A stretch of DNA of 64,000 nt from Chloroflexota bacterium. GTDB taxonomy: Bacteria > Chloroflexota > Dehalococcoidia > UBA2979. The first letter of the stretch is position 1, and each line of letters begins with the position of its first letter. The notes beneath the pieces are model-generated. The model was not told where the DNA came from. It saw nothing but the letters and a program-made list of their open reading frames with translations, and made no database searches. Positions 7,045 through 64,000 of this stretch are shown here, in pieces. The DNA is taken from the NCBI GenBank assembly GCA_016875635.1, contig VGPD01000002.1, positions 13,090-77,089 on the forward strand, in the 5' to 3' direction. Position numbers and translations under genes: made by a program.

Positions 7045-7062
7045 TGTAACTGACGAGTAACT
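7045..7062 (+). promoter_or_regulatory. tandem heptamer direct repeat TGTAACT-GACG-AGTAACT (SARP-box-like), about 8 bp upstream of a -10-like GAGAAT, in front of the molybdoenzyme operon
   Basis: Read directly. The 7+4+7 architecture is the same as in known SARP binding sites. GAGAAT is at 7072-7077, and the alpha-subunit ATG is at 7147. Confidence 0.45.
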
Positions 7063-7146
7063 CGCAAGGGGGAGAATCCACGCAGATCGCGCATGCGGTC
7101 ACAAGCGCAAAGCGTACCGGTGTGGACGGAATCTGGAGCACGCCCG

Positions 7147-10100
7147 ATGAATGACCAGGCTCGGCTGCCTCGACGGTCGTTTCTGAAGCGCGCGGCGGCG
7201 ATCGGCGCTGGGGTCGCCCTTGCGGACGCACTGGCGTTCGAGCCGTGGCATCTGGAGGCGAGCGATCCGGTCACGGTGACGGAGCCGCTGAAGATCTACC
7301 CGGACCGGAAGTGGGAGAGCGTCTACCGCGACCTCTGGAAGCCCGACAGTTCGTACGTCTTCACCTGCGCCCCGAATGACACGCACGACTGTCTCCTGAG
7401 CGCCCAGGTGAAGAACGGCGTGGTCGTGCGCATTGCCCCGACCTACGGGTACGGGAAGGCGAAGGACCGGAACGGCAACGGCGCCTCCCACCGGTGGGAT
7501 CCGCGCGCCTGCCAGAAGGGCCTCGCGCTGGCGCGGAAGTTCTACGGCGACCGGCGGGTGAAGGGGCCGATGATCCGCAAGGGCTTCAAGGAGTGGGCGG
7601 ACGCGGGCTTCCCGCGCGAGGCCGACACTGGCAAACCGAAGATGGACACCTCGAAGCGCGGCGAGGACTCGTGGCTCAAGTTGCCCTGGGATGAGGCGTA
7701 CGCGTACGCGGCGAAGGCCTACCAGAACATCGCCACCACGTACTCAGGCGACAAGGGGGCACAGTTCCTGCAGAAGCAGGGCTACGACCCCGACATGATC
7801 AGCGCGATGTCCGGCGCCGGGACGCGCGCCCTGAAGATCCGCGGCGGCATGCCGTTGCTGGGGATCGGGCGCATCTTCGGCTTCTACCGCCACGCGAATA
7901 CGCTGGCGCTGCTGGACGACAGCATCCGGAAGGTGGGCAAGGACGCGGCGCTGGGCGCACGCGGGTGGGACAACTACTCGTGGCACACCGACCTGCCGCC
8001 GGGCCACCCGATGGTCACCGGCCACCAGACATTCGAGTTCGACCTGTTCGCGCCGGAGTATGCCGACCTGGTGGTCATGTTCGGCATGAACTGGATCTCG
8101 ACGAAGATGCCGGACGGGCACTGGTTGGCCGAGGCCCGGATGAAGGGCACGCGCCTGATCACGGTGACCACGGACTACCAGTCCACCTCCAACCGGGCGG
8201 ACGAGGTCATCATGATCCGCCCCGGCACGGACGCGGCGCTCGCGCTCTCCTGCTCCCAGTACATCATCGCGAACCGGTTGTACGACGAGGCTGCGGTCAA
8301 GCGGACGACGGACCTGCCGTTGCTGATCCGCATGGACACGAAGAAGTTGCTCTCCGCGTCGGACCTGGTGTCCGGGTATCAAGCGGCGACACTCACGAAC
8401 TACGTGACGATGCTGCCGACTGGCCAGTCGATGCCGACGCCGACGCAGCAAGCGACGATGTACCTGACGCCCGAGCAGCGCGCAGAGTGGGGTGACTTCG
8501 TCGTCTGGGACGCCCGCACCAGCCGTGCCGTGCCTGTGACACGCGACCAGGTGGGCGACAAGTTCACGACCGACCCGGCGCTTGAGGGCGAATTCGAGGT
8601 GACGCTGGCCAACGGCCAGAAGGTCAAGGCACGCACCGTCTTCTCACTGGTCAGGCAGTACCTGGACGACAACTTCACGCCGGCCGTGGCCTCCGAGGTC
8701 ACCTGGGCGCCGCAGGCCGCGATCGAGGGGCTGGCGAAGCAGATTGCGAAGGCGAAGCAGAAGACCCTGCTGCCGCACGGGATGGGGCCCAACCACTTCT
8801 TCAACGCCCACCTGAAGGACCGCGCGATCTTCCTGCTCGCGGCATTGACCGACAACATCGGCCACATCGGTGGAAATGTCGGTTCGTACGCAGGGAACTA
8901 CCGCGGCTCGGTGTTCAACGGGATCCCCCAGTTCATCCAGGAGAACCCGTTCGATCTGGAGCTCGACCCCACGAAGCCGGCCCGGCAGAAGGGCTACTAC
9001 AAGAGCGAGTCCGCCCACTACTACAACTACGGCGACCGACCACTGCGGGTCGGGAACAAGAACTTCACGGGCAAGTCGCACATGCCGTCGCCCACGAAGT
9101 TGATCCACGTCGGCAACTCCAACTCGCTGCTGGGGAACGCGAAGTGGCACCACGATGTCGTCCACAACACGCTGCCGAGGATCGAAGCGATCTTCGTGAA
9201 CGAGTGGTGGTGGACGGCCTCCTGTGAGTACGCGGACATCGTGTTCGGGGTGGACTCGTGGGCGGAGCACAAGTTCGTGGACGCGTCCGCGTCCTGCACC
9301 AACCCGTTCCTGCACATCTACCCGCGCTCGCCCCTGAAGCGGATCTTCGACACGCGCTCCGACTACGAGGTGCTGGCGGGGGTAGGGAAGGCGCTGGGCG
9401 CGCTCACCAATGACCAGCGCTTTGTGGACGCGTGGAAGTTCATCCACGAAGGGAAGTCGGAGGTCTACCTCCAGCGCATCTTCAACGCCTCCACGACCGC
9501 CCGCGGCTACGACGTCCTCGACCTGGAGGCGAAGGCCCAGCAGGGGATCCCGGCGCTGATGAATTTCCGCACCTACCCCCGTCAGGGTGGCTGGGAACAG
9601 CGGAACGAGAGCAAGCCGCAATACACGAAGACGGGCCGGCTGGAGTTTTACCGGGACGAGGCGGAATTCATCGAGCACGGGGAGAACCTGCCGGTGTTCC
9701 GCGAGCCGATCGACTCCACGTTCCACGAACCGAACGTGATCCACGGGAAGCCACACCCGATGCTCGCGCCGAGCGGGCCGGAGGTGTACGGGCTGAAAGT
9801 GGACGACCTCTCCGCGGAGGCGCGCCAGGTGCGCAACGTGGTGAAGTCGTGGTCGGAGTTGAAGGTCACGAAGCACCCGCTGACCAACAAGGATCCGAAC
9901 TTCAAGTTCATCTTCATCACGCCGAAGTACCGACACGGCGCGCACACGACGCCGGTCGACCTCGACTGGATCTCGATGCTGTTCGGCCCGTACGGGGACA
10001 TCCGGCGGCAGGACAAGCGCGCCCCGTGGGTGGGTGAGGGGTACATCGAGATCCACCCGAAGGACGCGAAGGCATTCGGCATCGAGGACGGTGACTACGT

Positions 10101-10620
10101 CTGGTTCGACGCCGACCCGGAGGACCGCCCGTACCGCGGGTGGAAAAAGGACGACCCGTACTACAAGGTGGCCCGCGGCATGGCACGGGCCCGGTACCAG
10201 GCCTCGTTGCAGCCCGGCGTCACGCGCATGTGGTTCCACATGTACGTCGCGACGAAGGGCTCGGTGAAGGGGCAGGCGACACGTCCCGACGGGCTGGCGA
10301 AGAGCCCCGAGACGAACTACCAGGCGATGTTCCGCTCCGGCAGCCACCAGAGCGGTACGCGCGCCTGGCTCGGGCCCACGCTGCAAACCGAGACCATGGC
10401 CCGCAAGCCGTACTTCGGGCAGTTGATGGGGAAGGGGTTCGAGGGGGACGTCCACTCGGTGGTCGGTGCTCCCAAGGAGTCCTTCATCAAGATCGAGCGT
10501 GCCGAAGAGGGCGCGGTGGGCGGCAAGGGCCTGTGGCTCCCCGCGAAGGAAGGACTGCGTCCGACCTACGAGTCCGACGCGATGAAGAAGTACCTGAGCG
10601 GCGCGTTCTTCAGCGCGTAG
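7147..10620 (+). CDS. Tat-exported molybdopterin oxidoreductase alpha subunit, NarG-like (type II DMSO reductase family; NxrA/pNarG-like), unknown substrate
   Basis: Twin-arginine motif [14 protein letters not shown]. The N-terminus aligns residue by residue with E. coli NarG FS0 (NarG THGVNCTGSCSWKIYVKNG versus here [19 protein letters not shown]), then RAC.KG and PMIRKG as in NarG. Start is preferred at ATG 7147 (GGAG 8 nt upstream) rather than the track start 7093. 1157 aa. Confidence 0.85.
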
Positions 10621-10659
10621 CCCTACGCCCCCGCGGGGGCACTGGAAGGGAACGGCCCG

Positions 10660-11790
10660 ATGCCTGACGTCTTCAACTGGCAGCTCGACCGTCCGATGAA
10701 GTACCAGTACGAGGAGGCGCGACCCCAGAAGCAGATCGCGTGGATCTTCGACACGAACAAGTGCATCGCGTGCCAGACCTGCACCATTGCGTGCAAATCC
10801 ACCTGGACCTCCGGCAGCGGCCAGGAGTACATGCTCTGGAACAACGTGGAGACGAAGCCGTTTGGCTTCTTCCCCACAGGCTGGGACGTGAAGCTCCTGG
10901 AGATCATGGGCCCGGACGCCTGGAAGGACGGGAAGTTCGCCGGCCAGACCGTCTTCGAGTCCGCGCCAGCCGCGGAGCGGGTGAAGGGCCACCTGTTCGA
11001 CGCCGACCACTGGTCCCACCCGAACCTGGGTGAGGACGAGCCGGCAGGCGAGGCGGCACGCGGGACACACATCGACAAGCTGCCGCACGACATGTGGTTC
11101 TCCTACCTCGCGCGGATCTGCAACCACTGCACCTATCCCGCCTGTCTTGCGGCCTGTCCGCGGCAGGCGATCTACAAGCGGCCGGAGGACGGCATCGTCC
11201 TCGTCGACCAGGAGCGCTGTCGCGGCTATCAGGAGTGCGCGAGCGCCTGCCCGTACAAGAAGACGATGTACAACGAGGACACGCGGGTCACGGAGAAGTG
11301 CATCGCCTGCTACCCGAAGATCGAGCAGGGGCTGCAGCCGCAGTGCGTCACCTCCTGTATCGGGAGGATCCGCCTCGCGGGTTTCATCAGCCCTCCGGGC
11401 AAGATCGACCCGAAGAACCCGATCGACTATCTGGTGAAGGTGAAGAAGGTCGCGCTGCCGCTGTACCCGCAGTCCGGCACCGAGCCGAACGTCTACTACA
11501 TCCCGCCGGTCCACTCGAAGCGCGAGTACCTCCGCCAGATGTTCGGCCCGGGCGTGGATGTCGCCGTCGACACCTACCTGAAGACCAAGGAAGACCCGCA
11601 GATGCTGGGCCTGTTCATGCTCTTCGGGTCGACCGAACGGATCATCCGGCAGTTCGAAGTGAAGGGCAGCATGGCGATCGGATACGACGAGACGGGGAAG
11701 GAGCTGGTGAGCGTCCCCGTCACGGAACCCAGCGTGGTGCGTGAATACTTCGACCGGGTGAACCAGACGTACGTCCACAACATCACCTAG
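10660..11790 (+). CDS. iron-sulfur beta subunit, NarH/NxrB/EbdB-like (four Cys clusters)
   Basis: QIAWIFDTNKCIACQTCTIACK, CNHCTYPACLAACP, CRGYQECASACP and CIACYPK...CVTSCIGRIR. 376 aa, shorter than NarH. Confidence 0.85.
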   Translation: MPDVFNWQLDRPMKYQYEEARPQKQIAWIFDTNKCIACQTCTIACKSTWTSGSGQEYMLWNNVETKPFGFFPTGWDVKLLEIMGPDAWKDGKFAGQTVFESAPAAERVKGHLFDADHWSHPNLGEDEPAGEAARGTHIDKLPHDMWFSYLARICNHCTYPACLAACPRQAIYKRPEDGIVLVDQERCRGYQECASACPYKKTMYNEDTRVTEKCIACYPKIEQGLQPQCVTSCIGRIRLAGFISPPGKIDPKNPIDYLVKVKKVALPLYPQSGTEPNVYYIPPVHSKREYLRQMFGPGVDVAVDTYLKTKEDPQMLGLFMLFGSTERIIRQFEVKGSMAIGYDETGKELVSVPVTEPSVVREYFDRVNQTYVHNIT

Positions 11791-38660: not shown

Positions 38661-38777
38661 CCGCTATCGTCCGTCGACGGTTTGAGTTGCTGCTGTCTCC
38701 TGATCTGCAACCCGGGTGCTGCATGGTTCGGCGCATCCACCGGTGATCCCACGCAGGGTCGCCATTACGCTGCCTTG

Positions 38778-40088
38778 ATGAATTCGCGCGCCACGCTGCT
38801 CTCGGCGGCTATTGTCGCGGTCGTGCTGGGAGCGCTGTACGGCTGGACCGTCGCTCCGACGATCGCGGTGCTCCACGGCACGGTGGACAGCGCCGAACTC
38901 GTCTCCGTCGCGGCGGTCCTTGGCGTGGCGCACCCCTCGGGTGAGGCCGTATGGCTGCCGCTGGGGCGTCTTGCGCTGGAGATCATCCCGGCGAGTGAAC
39001 CCGCGTTGCGGACGAACCTGTTGTCGGTTGGGCTGATGGCGGTGGCCGGGGCGCTGGTCGCGGTCGCCGCGCGTCAATGGCGGTCGGAGACACCCTGGTG
39101 GGGAGCGTCGGCTGCCGGTCTGTTGTTCGGCCTCGCACCGGTGGTGTGGGCGCAGGCGATCGTCACAGAGGTATATGCGTTGCAGGCGGCCCTGGCGGGG
39201 CTCGCGCTCGTGCTGGGGGCCAGCGCAGCCGAGGGCTGGCGGTGGCGCCCGTTTGCGTTCGTCCTCGGACTGCTGGTGATGAGCCAGCTCATCGGCCTCG
39301 CACTCGTGGCCCCGCTCGCCGCTGTCGCATTCGTGGGCTCACGAGGAATGCGGGCCCGCGAGTCAGCATGGTGTGCGGGGTTCTTCGTTCTTCCGCTGCT
39401 CTATGCCATGGCGTACCTGTGGTTGCGCTCCGATGCCGCGATCGCGTGGGGTGACACGGGCTCCGCGCGCGGACTGGTGGACCATCTCATGGGTGGGATC
39501 TCCCGGGATGCGCTCGAACGGTCGCCGCGTGCTGTGGCCTCCGCCGTGCCGGAGACGATGCGGAGCGTGCTTCGTCAGTTCCCACCGCCGGTGTGGCTGT
39601 TGCTCATCCCCGGGACGTTAGCCCTCGTGCGGGCGCGCGCCGACCTGGCGCTCGTGCTGGGGGTGTGGTTGCTGCTGCTCATCGTCTTCATCTCCTCCTA
39701 CCTCTCGGAGGGCCGCGAGGACTATTTGCAGGGCACCACGATGCCGTTGGCGCTGGTCGCGGGGTGGGGTTGCGTGTCTGTCTGGGAATGGGTCGTGAGG
39801 TACCTCACGGACCGATGGCCGCGGGTGGCCCTCGGTGTCGTCGTGGTCGGGCTGCTTGCCTGGTGGGCGGTGTGGGTAGGGCACGACGCCTCATTGCGTG
39901 GCGACACCACGCTGGTGGCAGAGGCACGCGCGGTGCTGGCCGGGGTTTCTGAGGACGGCCGTGTGGACACGTCGAGTGATCGGGAGACGTTCCCCCTGTG
40001 GTATGTCACCACCGTCCTCCACGAACGTCCGGATGTGACGGTGGTGGACACGCGGTCCATCGTGCCTCCGGTGGGGCCGCGCCACTAG
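38778..40088 (+). CDS. polytopic membrane protein, GT-C-like (DUF2723/ArnT-like putative glycosyltransferase)
   Basis: About 10 TM helices with a periplasmic loop. Weak family assignment. Confidence 0.4.
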   Translation: MNSRATLLSAAIVAVVLGALYGWTVAPTIAVLHGTVDSAELVSVAAVLGVAHPSGEAVWLPLGRLALEIIPASEPALRTNLLSVGLMAVAGALVAVAARQWRSETPWWGASAAGLLFGLAPVVWAQAIVTEVYALQAALAGLALVLGASAAEGWRWRPFAFVLGLLVMSQLIGLALVAPLAAVAFVGSRGMRARESAWCAGFFVLPLLYAMAYLWLRSDAAIAWGDTGSARGLVDHLMGGISRDALERSPRAVASAVPETMRSVLRQFPPPVWLLLIPGTLALVRARADLALVLGVWLLLLIVFISSYLSEGREDYLQGTTMPLALVAGWGCVSVWEWVVRYLTDRWPRVALGVVVVGLLAWWAVWVGHDASLRGDTTLVAEARAVLAGVSEDGRVDTSSDRETFPLWYVTTVLHERPDVTVVDTRSIVPPVGPRH

Positions 40089-40252: not shown

Positions 40253-40423
40253 CTACAGACGGAGCCGGGTTTTGCCGTCCGCAGGCTGGTCTTCCTCGGC
40301 ACCGTATCCCCAACCGTACTGGTGATAGTGGTCATGAGCGGCGTCCCGGGTGCCCACTCGGTTCAGCACGAGTCCGGCGATCGGACGGCCCGTCTGAGCG
40401 AGCTCCGTGGTTGTTTCCAGCAG
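40253..40423 (-). pseudogene. in-frame continuation of the BY-kinase encoding the conserved C-terminal region and tyrosine cluster
   Basis: Directly after the TAA, the same frame reads LLETTTELAQTGRPIAGLVLNRVGTRDAAHDHYHQYGWGYGAEED... This aligns with the BY-kinase C-terminus (GxVLNxV...YGYGY). Confidence 0.5.
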
Positions 40424-41647
40424 TTAGCCGATCCGCGTCTTCCCGGCGCGCGCCACGATCACCAGCCCGTCTGAGAGCATGCCGAGGACCGAGGCGTCGG
40501 TGACCACCAGCGCGGGCGGCGAGTCCATCAACACCACATCGAATCGGTCGCGCAGCCCGTCGAGGATTTCCCGCATGCGCGCGGACCCGAGTAATTCGGA
40601 TGGGTTGGGCGTCATCGGGCCGGATGGGAGCACTGTGACGTTCGTGTACAACGAGCGGACGAGCAGGCGGCCGACGTCCCGCTCGCGGGCCAGCAGGAGG
40701 GTCGTGAGTCCTGTTGCGTTGTCGATGCCGAATACCTTGTGCATCGTTGGGCGGCGCAGATCCGTGTCGACCACGCAGACGCGGTGTCCGGCAAGCCCGA
40801 ACACAATGGCGAGGTTCGCGGTGGTCGTCGTCTTGCCCTCGCCCAGGCCAGGCGAGGTGATGAGGACGAGACGGCGGTCTTGGCCGAGGTTGATTGCGTA
40901 GGAGAGGTTCGTCCGGGCCGCCCGGTATGCCTCGGCGATCGTGGACCGCGGCCGGTTCGCGGCCTGCAGCTGTTCCCGCGCGTTGCGCAGCCGCCCGAAC
41001 TGTTCGATGCGGGCCAGGATCGGGAGGCCGGTCTGCTCTAGGGCTTTCTCTCCGGACTTCACCGTGTCATCGAGGTATTCGATGACCGTGACGATGACGG
41101 TGGCAGCGAGGGCGAACAGAACCATCCCCAGCGCAGTATTCAGGAGAAGGCGCTGCGAGACCGGGCTACCTGATGGGAGCGCTTCCTCGACGACGGACAC
41201 CTGCCCCGGGCGGCTGGTGAGGGCCGCCTCATTCGACGAGATGAACGCCCGGGCCACGGTGTTCGAGATCCGCGCCGCGAGTTCGGGACTCGACGCCCGG
41301 GCAGTCACGACCAGCAGCTGGGTGCCGCGCGGGTTCGTGACGTTGAGGCGAATCGCGAGTCCGGTCGCGTCGAACGGGAGGTTGCCGTCCTGGATCGACC
41401 GGTCGAGCACCGGGCGGAGCGTGACCAGACGCGAGAACGTGTTAGCCAGCCGTTCTGCCGTTTGCAGGTCATTCAGTTGGACAACGCCCTCGCCCTGACG
41501 CTGGACGACGAGGAGGGTTGTCCGCGCCTCGTAGGAAGGGGTGATCCGGGTGGAGATCAGGTAGGTCGCCACGCCACCCAGGACGGCGGCGCTGATCACC
41601 AGCCACCACCAGCGGCGGCCGATTCGGAGGGACTGTTCGAGGTCCAT
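40424..41647 (-). CDS. polysaccharide co-polymerase / BY-kinase (Wzz + CpsD-like tyrosine autokinase), truncated before the Tyr-cluster tail by an in-frame TAA
   Basis: N-terminal TM and Wzz region. Walker A GLGEGKTTT, A' VVDTDLRRP, B DVVLMDSPP. It stops after ...ARAGKTRIG. Confidence 0.7.
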   Translation of the reverse strand: MDLEQSLRIGRRWWWLVISAAVLGGVATYLISTRITPSYEARTTLLVVQRQGEGVVQLNDLQTAERLANTFSRLVTLRPVLDRSIQDGNLPFDATGLAIRLNVTNPRGTQLLVVTARASSPELAARISNTVARAFISSNEAALTSRPGQVSVVEEALPSGSPVSQRLLLNTALGMVLFALAATVIVTVIEYLDDTVKSGEKALEQTGLPILARIEQFGRLRNAREQLQAANRPRSTIAEAYRAARTNLSYAINLGQDRRLVLITSPGLGEGKTTTTANLAIVFGLAGHRVCVVDTDLRRPTMHKVFGIDNATGLTTLLLARERDVGRLLVRSLYTNVTVLPSGPMTPNPSELLGSARMREILDGLRDRFDVVLMDSPPALVVTDASVLGMLSDGLVIVARAGKTRIG

Positions 41648-43801: not shown

Positions 43802-44827
43802 CTACTTCAGGGTCTCGCGGATCGCGGTCTGCAACTCCGGGTAGTCCATGATCCCTTCAAACTTCGCGGTGATGATGCCGTCTCGCCCTACGACGAAGAT
43901 CATCGGCTCCGCGAGCAGTTTCCATTCCTCCACGGCGGGTACCGTCTCCAGTTTGCCGCCCCGCGCCTTCGCGATGTCGTACGGTTCGATGTGCAGGACG
44001 TTGATCTGATCTTTGAATTCGTTCCACGCGGGGGTCACAACCTGATCAAGCACCGGTCCGCAGAACCGGGTCTGGCAGAACGCCGGTGTGACGAACGCGA
44101 CCACCGTCGGCTTCCCGCTCGTGATCGCCTGCGCCACCGTCAGACGATGTAGTTCTGGGTTCGGTGTGAGGGAGGTGTCCACCTCGTCGACGCTCTTCAC
44201 GTCGGCGAGTGTGAGCTGCTTGCTTGCGGGGGCCGGATCGCCAATGCGAGGCTCCCGTGTCCGTTCCTGCACCACGAACACGAGACGCAGTCCCGAGTAC
44301 GTCTTCTCCTTCGTCTTCACATCCAGCGAGACGCCCCAGAAGCCGGCCCGGTCGAAATCGACCAGCGACGTGTAGACCGTGCTGTCGTGCCCGATGTGGA
44401 GATCGCCCAGATCGGTCGAGGGGGCACGCGGGATGCGAGAGACGAGGACGCCTCCGAGCCGGGAGACACCGATGCCTTTCAACGTATGCGGCAGGAGCGG
44501 TGCCTCACCCACACGTTTCGGGTTCTTCGGCTCGCCCTCCGGTTCCTTGTCGAGGTGGTAGAAGGTGGCTGTGACCTGGGCGTTCGTGATGAACTCCTGG
44601 TTGTCATCGAACAGCGCCAGCGAGAGGCGGTTCTTCCCGACTCCGAGGTTCGAGTTGACGATGATCGGGGCGAACGGTACTTCGGCGACCGTCTGCTCGA
44701 GGCTTCGCGCGTCCCATTTCTCCTCACCACCGCCGCTGCAGGCCCCCGCGATCAGGGAGCTGATGAGAGTGAGTGCGACGATGGTCAGCAGGGCGGCGTG
44801 GGGAAAGCCTCGGTGGGGGCGGTGCAT
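43802..44827 (-). CDS. lipoprotein with C-terminal thioredoxin-like (SCO/TlpA-like) domain
   Basis: Lipobox IAGAC. C-terminal VVAFVTPAFCQTRFCGPV (C-x4-C) lies in a thioredoxin-like beta-alpha-beta context. Start at internal ATG (MHRPHRG). Confidence 0.45.
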   Translation of the reverse strand: MHRPHRGFPHAALLTIVALTLISSLIAGACSGGGEEKWDARSLEQTVAEVPFAPIIVNSNLGVGKNRLSLALFDDNQEFITNAQVTATFYHLDKEPEGEPKNPKRVGEAPLLPHTLKGIGVSRLGGVLVSRIPRAPSTDLGDLHIGHDSTVYTSLVDFDRAGFWGVSLDVKTKEKTYSGLRLVFVVQERTREPRIGDPAPASKQLTLADVKSVDEVDTSLTPNPELHRLTVAQAITSGKPTVVAFVTPAFCQTRFCGPVLDQVVTPAWNEFKDQINVLHIEPYDIAKARGGKLETVPAVEEWKLLAEPMIFVVGRDGIITAKFEGIMDYPELQTAIRETLK

Positions 44828-44888
44828 GGTCAGCCTCTCGTCGGTGGGTGATCCCAGCATCCCCCGGGGTGGCTGGGCGGGCAAGGCC

Positions 44889-45884
44889 CTACCGGGCGTG
44901 CGGCTGGCGCGCCATGAGGGCCACTTCCTCCGAGTCACCGTAGACGAACAGCCGGTCACCCCGGCGTAGCGTCACATCGCCGTGGGGGCCCACTGTGAAG
45001 CCCTCGCCTTCCCGCTCCATACCCAGTACGTGCACTGCGGTGGCCTCGGCCGCCAGGGCCTCGAGCGTCCGCCCCGCCACGCCCCAGGGGGCGTCTTCCA
45101 CGACGACTTCCGCGAGGACATGGCCGCCGCCCGCCTCGATGGTGGTGATGCGGTCGACGAATTGGACCAGGGCGGGTTGCACGGCGGCGAGGGCCATCCG
45201 CCGTCCGCCGATCTGGTATGGCGAGACGACACTGTCCGCGCCGGCAGTCTTGAGCCGTCGCTCGGCTGAGTCGGAACCCGCCCGGGCCACGATGAAGAGG
45301 CCCGGGTTCAGCGCTCGGGCTGTCAGCACGATGTACGTGTTCTGCACGTCCGAGTCCGCCGCCGCGATCAACGTCCGGGCGCGCTCGATCCCGGCGTCAC
45401 GCAGCGTCGTCTCGTGCGTGGCGTCGCCGACCACGGTTGCGACGTGCGTCCCGGAGATCGAGGCGATCGCGGCCGTGTCCACGTCGACCACGACGTGATG
45501 GACGTTCCGGGCGGCCAGCATGTCCGCGGTCTCACGTCCGACCCGACCGAAGCCACAGATGATGACGTGGTCTTTCATCCGTCGCACCTTTCCACGATTC
45601 CGCCGCAATCCAAAGGCGTCGGCGACGCCGCCGACGATGACCGTCTCCACCTCGACCGTGACGACATAGAACAGGACACCGACGCCGACCAGCAGGTACG
45701 CGATCGTGAACGCTCGCCCGCTCGCGTCCAGCGGCCGTACCTCACCGTATCCGACGGTGGTGATGGAGATGACGGCCATGAACAGGCCGTCCTCGAACCC
45801 GAACCCCTCGACGATGCCGTACCAGACGGTCCCGACGACGACGACCGCGAGCAGCAGGGCGCCAAGGAAGATCGGGCGTCGCAC
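44889..45884 (-). CDS. potassium channel with RCK (TrkA-N/TrkA-C) domains
   Basis: Two TM helices flanking a selectivity filter TTVGYGE. A Rossmann GFGRVG follows, then a TrkA-C-like C-terminal domain. Confidence 0.7.
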   Translation of the reverse strand: MRRPIFLGALLLAVVVVGTVWYGIVEGFGFEDGLFMAVISITTVGYGEVRPLDASGRAFTIAYLLVGVGVLFYVVTVEVETVIVGGVADAFGLRRNRGKVRRMKDHVIICGFGRVGRETADMLAARNVHHVVVDVDTAAIASISGTHVATVVGDATHETTLRDAGIERARTLIAAADSDVQNTYIVLTARALNPGLFIVARAGSDSAERRLKTAGADSVVSPYQIGGRRMALAAVQPALVQFVDRITTIEAGGGHVLAEVVVEDAPWGVAGRTLEALAAEATAVHVLGMEREGEGFTVGPHGDVTLRRGDRLFVYGDSEEVALMARQPHAR

Positions 45885-62536: not shown

Positions 62537-63307
62537 CTACGCGAGGTGCTGCTCGAAGAACGCCCAGACTTTGCTCCACCCGTCCATTGCCTGTTCCTGG
62601 CGATAGGCCGCGCGGTCGTAGTAGAAGAAGCCGTGCCCGGCACCGTCGTAGCGGTGGAATTCGTACTGCTGCCCATGCTGTTTGAGCGCCGCCTCATGCT
62701 GGTCGACCTGCTCCGGGGTCGGCGCGCGGTCCTCGTTGCCGAAGATGCCAAGCAGCGGAATGTTGAGGCTCGGGGTCAGGTCGACCGGCGAGACCGGGCG
62801 CTTGTCGTTCAGGTCTTCCGGCCGAGCCACGACGCCGCCGCCCCAGAGGTCGGCGACAGCGGCGAACTGGTCGCTCTGGCAGGCGGTGAGGTACGCGTGA
62901 CGGCCCCCGGAGCAGGTGCCGATCACCCCAATCTTCCCGTTCGAATTGCCCGCGGCCTTCAGGTAGCGGGCTGACGCCTCGACGTCAGCCACCACCTGCG
63001 CGTCCGGCACTCCACCGGCGCCACGCACCATCACCATCACATCTTCGATTGTACCGTGGCCCACCCGCTCGTACAGGTTCGGGCAGATGGCGGCGTAACC
63101 ACGGCGGGCGAAGCGGAGCGTCGCCTCCTTGTACCAGTCGTCCCACCCGGGTGCGTGGTGGATGAGGACAACACCCGGGACGGGGCCAGATGCGGTCGGG
63201 CGGGCGTAGTAGGCGCGGATCGGATCGCCGTTCTGGCCGGTCACCATCACGGTCTCGGCGACGAGGCCTTCCTGCTGGTCAGTGCGATATGGCATGGGTT
63301 CCTCCAT
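62537..63307 (-). CDS. dienelactone hydrolase family protein
   Basis: VVLIHHAPGWDDWYKEATLRFARRGYAAICPNLY and GTCSGGRHAY nucleophile. Confidence 0.7.
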   Translation of the reverse strand: MEEPMPYRTDQQEGLVAETVMVTGQNGDPIRAYYARPTASGPVPGVVLIHHAPGWDDWYKEATLRFARRGYAAICPNLYERVGHGTIEDVMVMVRGAGGVPDAQVVADVEASARYLKAAGNSNGKIGVIGTCSGGRHAYLTACQSDQFAAVADLWGGGVVARPEDLNDKRPVSPVDLTPSLNIPLLGIFGNEDRAPTPEQVDQHEAALKQHGQQYEFHRYDGAGHGFFYYDRAAYRQEQAMDGWSKVWAFFEQHLA

Positions 63308-63412
63308 GGATGCATGGCGAGTGTCGGGCGCGGGCCCGGAGACCGCGTGACAGCATACCCGGCGTCCGGCCGGGCCTGCGGCTGAGGGTCGTGGTCGTTT
63401 CCGAGGCCCGGG

Positions 63413-64000
63413 CTAGGCCGAGTTGTCCCAGAAGTGGGTGTGCGCGGCAGGTGCCACATTCAACGCGTCGTAGAGCGGCCGCACCGTCGGGGTGGCGCCT
63501 TCTACGGCATGCTCCATCGCCCCCTGCCAGTACTGCTGGAGCGGGTTGAGGGCGTCCGCGTCGAAGCGGGCCTCCTGCATCTGGAAGGAGCCCCGCCTGT
63601 AGAGCACCGTGTCGACGGGGTAGTCGACGTCCGACGCGCTCGTGCGGGTCGCGTCGAACGAGAGCAGGCCCACTCGCAATGCTTCGAACAGGCCCTGGTC
63701 ATGCCGCCAGACACGGTCGAGGATCGGTTTTCCGTATCGCGACTCACCGATGATCACGTACGGGGCGCCGGTGCGGACCTCGACCCAGTTGCCTTCCGGA
63801 TAGATGAGATAGAGGCGATGTTGATCGTCCCCCTCGAGCTGTCCGCCAAAGATGCAGTGCAGGTCGAAGTAGAGGCCACCCTCCATGAGCCACTGAAGGT
63901 CCTCGCGGCGGACACGCCGCAGTTCCTCCGCCAAGACATTGGCCGCCATGTACATCTTCTTGAGCTCACCTGACGAGGACTGCAGGCGTTCCTCGAAGTA
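63413..64000 (-). CDS. proteasome-type (Ntn-hydrolase, COG3484-like) protease, N-terminus beyond window end
   Basis: Frame is open to the window edge. Conserved core LYLIYPEGNWVE...PYVIIGESRYGKPILD. Confidence 0.5.
   Translation of the reverse strand, partial: YFEERLQSSSGELKKMYMAANVLAEELRRVRREDLQWLMEGGLYFDLHCIFGGQLEGDDQHRLYLIYPEGNWVEVRTGAPYVIIGESRYGKPILDRVWRHDQGLFEALRVGLLSFDATRTSASDVDYPVDTVLYRRGSFQMQEARFDADALNPLQQYWQGAMEHAVEGATPTVRPLYDALNVAPAAHTHFWDNSA

Follow-up and report, generated by a model that had tools for sequence, protein, structure and literature searches.

The window, that is, the whole stretch of 64,000 nucleotides of DNA that was analysed, contains a kinase gene on the minus strand (41647→40253) which is interrupted by an in-frame TAA at 40426-40424, codon 408. 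From its ATG at 41647 down to position 40424, the minus-strand ORF encodes 407 aa, the C-terminal end being ...VIVARAGKTRIG, followed directly by the TAA. This truncated CDS (40424-41647) specifies a Wzz/PCP region, two predicted transmembrane (TM) helices and then a shortened BY-kinase P-loop domain. Past the TAA, the frame is open for 56 more codons (LLETTTELAQTGRPIAGLVLNRVGTRDAAHDHYHQYGWGYGAEEDQPADGKTRLRL) until a TAG is reached at 40255-40253. The untranslated in-frame remnant (codons 409-464, 40256-40423, minus strand) contains neither indels nor additional stops and corresponds to the last helix, the last beta-strand, an Asn-Arg pair, a tyrosine cluster and a short acidic end. Judged from the alignments, a frame that can still be aligned beyond the stop is far beyond chance. 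The interruption of a BY-kinase by an in-frame TAA, on which the original prediction was based, agrees with the ORF and with family alignments read through the stop. That the stop occupies a single aligned residue was also seen in phmmer alignments to CapA/CapB chimeras, which cross it and have Glu at this place in CapB. At NCBI, the 407-aa product is recorded from a 97-kb contig as MBM4409859.1, 'MAG: polysaccharide biosynthesis tyrosine autokinase [Chloroflexi bacterium]'.

The gene convergent to the kinase gene (38682-40088, plus strand) is a candidate for a TMEM260-like membrane glycosyltransferase of the GT-C type, and this synteny is kept in the sister strains described below. It is the only glycan-related gene adjoining the kinase. 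The other neighbours between 32.6 and 48.3 kb are gyrA, an AIR-synthase-related gene, a TsaB-like gene, and genes for a siderophore-interacting protein, a PhzF-like protein, an alpha/beta hydrolase, an unassigned protein, a TrkA-type K+ channel and a VWA protein. A polysaccharide synthesis or export cluster, recognizable by a phosphatase, Wza/Wzx/Wzy or glycosyltransferases, was not detected around the kinase in this region. Likewise, a tblastn search within the window for a second BY-kinase copy, which might compensate for the interrupted one, yielded none. No Pfam family matched the ORF of 385 aa at 43802-44959 (minus strand) at E <= 0.001; in sister strain L083 its counterpart, called with 341 aa, is likewise found beside the hydrolase gene.

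Stop codon usage in the window is dominated by TAG, with about 26-27 TAG, 9-10 TGA and 4-5 TAA among roughly 40 GC3-supported ORFs. The same tendency is apparent in the nearest relatives (L001, L011, L007, L083). At about 67% GC, TGA is normally the dominant stop codon, which makes the dominance of TAG unusual.

Domain structure and family assignment

When the stop was read as X, the NCBIfam model TIGR01007 matched over its full length (1-204/204) at residues 239-445 (E = 3e-47) with a score of 160.7 bits, compared to a curated cut-off of 108.05. Pfam searches performed in the same way placed a Wzz domain at residues 8-86 (PF02706, 33.3 bits, cut-off 25.5) and AAA_31/CbiA/ParA matches at residues 260-440. 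A match to TIGR01006 at residues 8-217 remained below its cut-off. In the structural model, long helices at 3-33 and 167-194 flank the N-terminal Wzz region, and two TM helices are predicted. The designation as a BY-kinase in the original prediction could be refined from model score and motifs to a PCP2-type kinase with a fused Wzz domain. Scores against the Wzc/Etk equivalogs NF008568 and NF007350 were 138-140 bits and did not reach the cut-offs of 1068-1248; the gene is related to Wzc and Etk, but is an orthologue of neither.

The motifs by which BY-kinases are recognized are all contained in the 407-aa product. Walker A, the P-loop, is intact (GLGEGKTTT, residues 267-275, 40823-40849, minus strand), with G267, G269, G271, K272 and T273-275 invariant. 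The same holds for Walker A' (VCVVDTDLRRP, residues 290-300, 40748-40780, minus strand), in which D294, D296 and R298 are invariant in orthologues, and for the extended Walker B motif (VVLMDSPPA, residues 371-379, 40511-40537, minus strand), in which D375, P377 and P378 are invariant. Two other defining features of the family are lacking because of the stop. The tyrosine cluster, the substrate of autophosphorylation, is absent from the translated product, Y441, Y444 and Y448 being encoded past the TAA only; it was part of the ancestral gene and is still part of the intact sister alleles. The complete nucleotide-binding fold, including the adenine-contacting Asn-Arg pair, is also missing from the product, as its final elements fall after the stop.

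Origin of the stop codon

The closest genome loci were found in MAGs of Dehalococcoidia/Chloroflexota. An intact 464-aa allele with 94% protein identity is located on two Logan contigs, L081 (SRR23217744) and L083 (SRR29729390), both with the same synteny as the window, the PhzF-like gene upstream and the TMEM260-like gene convergent downstream. At the DNA level, L081 is 94.7% identical to the window over 3.5 kb, and L083 about 96%. Codon 408 is GAA in both contigs and TAA in the window, a difference of one coding-strand G-to-T transversion; plus-strand position 40426 is occupied by A in the window and by C in the sister strains, in which the codon specifies Glu. Among aligned orthologues with 65-94% identity and 464-494 aa, a sense codon (E, A or G) is present at 408 in 18 out of 18, and none of the other complete homologues within the best 120 is truncated at this point. 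Compared with the corresponding part of the intact genes in the two sister strains, the tail has a DNA identity of 96-98%. Sliding-window identity to the sisters ranges from 87% to 100% with an unremarkable tail, and neither a local conservation anomaly nor recombination was detected near the stop.

The comparison with closest relatives that had been advised with the original prediction is therefore available, and it agrees with the nonsense mutation suggested there: sister strains and the 18 orthologues carry a sense codon and specify a full-length protein, and GAA in the sisters together with E, A or G in the orthologues supports TAA as the derived state. With a probability of roughly 0.8, the TAA is a real strain-specific nonsense mutation, Glu408 to stop, in a Wzz-fused BY-kinase of an uncultured Chloroflexota (Dehalococcoidia-like) population. 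The stop is an ordinary strain-specific gene disruption in an already known family.

Elements removed from the kinase

An AlphaFold2 model was obtained for the intact sister allele P0001 with a 30-sequence alignment (mean pLDDT 82). In this model, residues 406-417 form a helix and residues 423-431 the last beta-strand (pLDDT about 87-89 in each case), while residues 434-464 are disordered. The stop at 408 consequently interrupts the last helix at its beginning. The codons for N429-R430 (40358-40363, minus strand), the counterparts of CapB N211/R212, are situated past the stop, and the pair is hence missing from the product. In the phmmer alignment, the 'LNR' motif of CapB is aligned with L428-N429-R430; N429 is invariant and R430 at least 90% conserved in the orthologue alignment. 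In CapB, N211 contacts N6 and N7 of adenine, R212 is involved in stacking on adenine and in a ribose contact, and helix alpha10 participates in an octamer contact (PMC2422856). The degenerate tyrosine cluster Y441-H-Q-Y444-G-W-G-Y448 (40304-40327, minus strand), with three Tyr, is also found past the stop.

The position of the TAA 'exactly before' the tyrosine cluster, as originally described, had to be corrected: it is 33 codons upstream of Y441, and about 30 structured residues lie in between. A kinase locked in one regulatory state, the consequence originally envisaged, does not fit either, as the last helix, the last strand and N429/R430 are lost in addition. Since fold elements and the adenine-binding pair are removed, a kinase-dead or unstable protein is predicted instead of a state-locked kinase, and lost ATP binding or folding would be more likely than an active, constitutively unphosphorylated protein. 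The 407-aa product retains the Wzz/PCP domain with its two TM helices as well as the three Walker motifs (A, A' and B), and lacks the last helix and strand of the P-loop fold, the Asn-Arg pair holding adenine, and all acceptor tyrosines. The stop itself, its ancestral state, its recurrence in a second assembly and the set of lost elements are observations; from the CapB structural data we infer loss of activity or stability, and further a possible phenotype. Most likely, the product would be kinase-dead, and possibly unstable or misfolded, on an intact Wzz/TM module. The gene is likely an incipient pseudogene or, at best, codes for a kinase-less chain-length-determinant protein.

These results are of little significance beyond annotation. 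The NCBI label 'tyrosine autokinase' for MBM4409859.1 ignores the absent acceptor tyrosines and the partial ATP site, and the annotation should read truncated or likely pseudogene. If the allele were fixed in the population, the strain would probably differ from its sisters in the regulation of extracellular polysaccharide.

The C-terminus of the whole clade has further peculiarities. According to the alignment with outgroups, the TAG at 40253-40255 (minus strand) is the normal gene terminus in the clade formed by L081, L083 and the window itself. Its aligned counterpart is CAG (Gln) in the nearest outgroups, L001 and L011, which continue for about 25 aa past this position (...QDL...PTGTxE), and the codons after the TAG of the clade are still alignable (xLAR). 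On the basis of this alignment, the clade-shared TAG is itself an older nonsense truncation. The region of the tyrosine cluster (40304-40339, minus strand) reads HDHYHQYGWGY clade-wide, intact sisters included, as opposed to GYYYYYQYGRGY in outgroup orthologues. Three clustered Tyr are thus replaced by His, Asp and His in the clade, and three acceptor tyrosines are left.

Age of the mutation and constraint

Compared with L083, codons 409-464 of the remnant contain four nonsynonymous and no synonymous differences, whereas in codons 230-407 of the kinase domain four nonsynonymous and 11 synonymous differences were counted. For these small counts, a one-sided Fisher test calculated by hand gave p about 0.02. 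All four replacements in the remnant distinguish the window from both sisters. Two of them, A411E and G437A, affect positions that are identical in 18 out of 18 other close orthologues; the other two, K459 and T460, are within a variable linker. As a weak hint from the sequence comparison, these changes would fit a remnant that is no longer translated or under selection, that is, relaxed constraint. Of the tail described originally as fully preserved, the reading frame is indeed free of indels and stops, but the amino acid sequence has acquired the four window-specific replacements.

Decay of the whole gene was also considered. Polarised substitutions gave N:S ratios of 13:11 for the branch leading to the window and 8:8 for the sister branch. 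In an alignment of 29 broader orthologues, 138 columns reach a conservation of at least 90%; deviations from these were counted at three columns in the window and at three to four in the intact sisters, P165Q being the sole window-specific deviation. No difference can be claimed from these values, and since the window deviates no more often than its sisters, there is no evidence for whole-gene decay. The nonsense event is fairly recent relative to the sister-strain divergence of roughly 5%, which is why the 56 downstream codons are still in frame.

P165Q is accompanied by P167L, also window-specific, and both are located directly before the second TM helix (codons 165-167, 41147-41155, minus strand). 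P165 is conserved without exception in 30 orthologues with identities down to 43%, the intact sister allele P0001 among them.

Alternative explanations

The absence of decay in the 5' part could alternatively indicate that the truncated protein is functional and the truncation adaptive, giving rise to a kinase-less Wzz/PCP co-polymerase or to an altered amount or chain length of polysaccharide. PCP proteins without kinase domains exist, and in capsule variants of pathogens the polysaccharide is altered by mutations in wzc. Relative to the sister alleles, damaging changes are not in excess in the 5' 407 codons, and the earlier CAG to TAG shortening in the clade, together with the replacement of three clustered Tyr, suggests that the regulatory tail is evolutionarily labile. 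The recency of the event, however, accounts equally well for the absence of decay. Moreover, the cut is not a clean deletion of a domain but is placed inside the P-loop fold with loss of a core strand and a helix, which usually destabilises the domain, and the allele is known from one sample only. An adaptive truncation is therefore regarded as unlikely.

An extended version of this idea would regard the TAA as the most recent event in a step-by-step erosion, under selection, of the phospho-regulatory C-terminus within this clade of Chloroflexota. The series would begin with the shared CAG-to-TAG change, by which the extension of about 25 aa was lost, continue with the replacement of the three clustered Tyr and end with the TAA; a kinase-fused PCP would then be turning into a kinase-less Wzz-like co-polymerase in nature. 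Such a course of events is considered very doubtful.

An artefact was the second explanation offered in the original prediction. In this case, an error in sequencing, consensus or binning would have produced the TAA, and the organism would really encode an intact 464-aa kinase. The source is a metagenome-assembled genome, the TAA allele has been seen in just one cluster member and one sample, the rest of the tail is intact, and G-to-T is a known oxidative library artefact. On the other hand, a Logan contig assembled from SRR7990526 agrees with the window at every one of 5748 bp, those of the TAA among them. This contig of 7.8 kb differs from the 97-kb MAG contig in its boundaries and was produced by a different assembler. 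An artefact of assembly or polishing is excluded by this independent re-assembly. Both are assembled contigs that may derive from the same reads, so that a read-level error or a minority allele of a mixed population might still lie behind the TAA; to this extent the artefact explanation is weakened, but part of it stands. Oxidative errors, however, occur at low read fractions and should not win the consensus twice, and an isolated base-calling error would not explain four window-specific replacements in the tail with zero synonymous changes. Altogether, an artefact is judged to be very improbable. An exact-pattern scan of JGI metagenome contigs found neither allele, and a literature search on the run accession gave no match.

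Hardly credible is programmed expression across the stop, either by read-through or recoding of the TAA to give the full-length kinase or by separate translation of the tail to give a split kinase. The tail frame is open and alignable, and the stop is found in the context TAA-C, which is not the strongest stop context in E. coli. Nevertheless, TAA terminates four other GC3-supported ORFs in the window, and as an ordinary terminator there it makes recoding unlikely; the stop is missing from the sister strains and from all orthologues, and a conserved recoding site is consequently not present. For a split kinase, neither ATG, GTG nor TTG is available after the stop before V427, no Shine-Dalgarno-like sequence is positioned for V427, and a fragment starting at this residue would be without the helix.

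The window was also scanned for other same-frame ORF pairs separated by one stop, which could have pointed to stop reassignment or an error-ridden assembly. Two pairs were detected, 7054-10620 with 10621-11790 and 63413-64000 with 62537-63412. Both consist of ordinary adjacent genes, the downstream ORF having its own start in each case. As these adjacencies are ordinary and TAA is used normally, nothing indicates recoding or a generally damaged assembly. The first pair (7054-11790, plus strand) consists of two long ORFs with a single TAG between them, the second starting with MPDVFNWQ... and containing a Cys-rich CIACQTCTIACK motif. Their sequences suggest a molybdopterin oxidoreductase operon, with one ORF for the large and one for the iron-sulfur subunit, and not an interrupted gene.

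Comparison with known systems

Among proteins of solved structure, CapA/CapB of Staphylococcus aureus (PDB 2ved, 3bfv, 4jlv), a BY-kinase with a separate transmembrane activator, gave the best match. In phmmer searches, the chimeras 4jlv, 4jmp and 3bfv were aligned to residues 192-445 of the query with E = 3e-43 to 8e-38. CapB and the Chloroflexota kinase have in common the three Walker motifs (A, A' and B), the juxtamembrane activator segment, the LNR motif for adenine binding and a tyrosine tail at the C-terminus. The systems differ in that the Wzz-like membrane module and the kinase form a single polypeptide here and that the tyrosine cluster is reduced to three Tyr; in the window strain, the stop additionally takes away the last helix and strand together with the LNR motif and the tail.

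Wzc/Etk of Escherichia coli and Klebsiella (PCP2a BY-kinases; PDB 7nhr, 3la6, 3cio) matched residues 142-453 with E about 1e-34. They have the fused arrangement in common with the kinase described here, in which two TM helices enclose a PCP domain on the periplasmic or extracellular side and the kinase follows in the cytoplasm. The extracytoplasmic domain, however, comprises about 130 residues here compared to about 400 in Wzc/Etk, and adjoining wza, wzb or glycosyltransferase operon genes are lacking.

The orthologues in Dehalococcoidia/Chloroflexota MAGs (P0001, P0003-P0026; L001-L011, L081, L083) show 65-94% full-length identity and the same domain order, and the nearest ones have their neighbours in common with the window, the PhzF-like gene upstream and the convergent TMEM260-like gene downstream. 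In contrast to the window allele, all of them specify a full-length protein of 464-494 aa and have a sense codon at 408, and those outside the immediate clade possess a richer tyrosine cluster (YYYYY-QY) and about 25 extra aa at the C-terminus. By its sequence, the interrupted kinase is closest to CapB-type kinases, with a fused architecture as in Wzc-type proteins.
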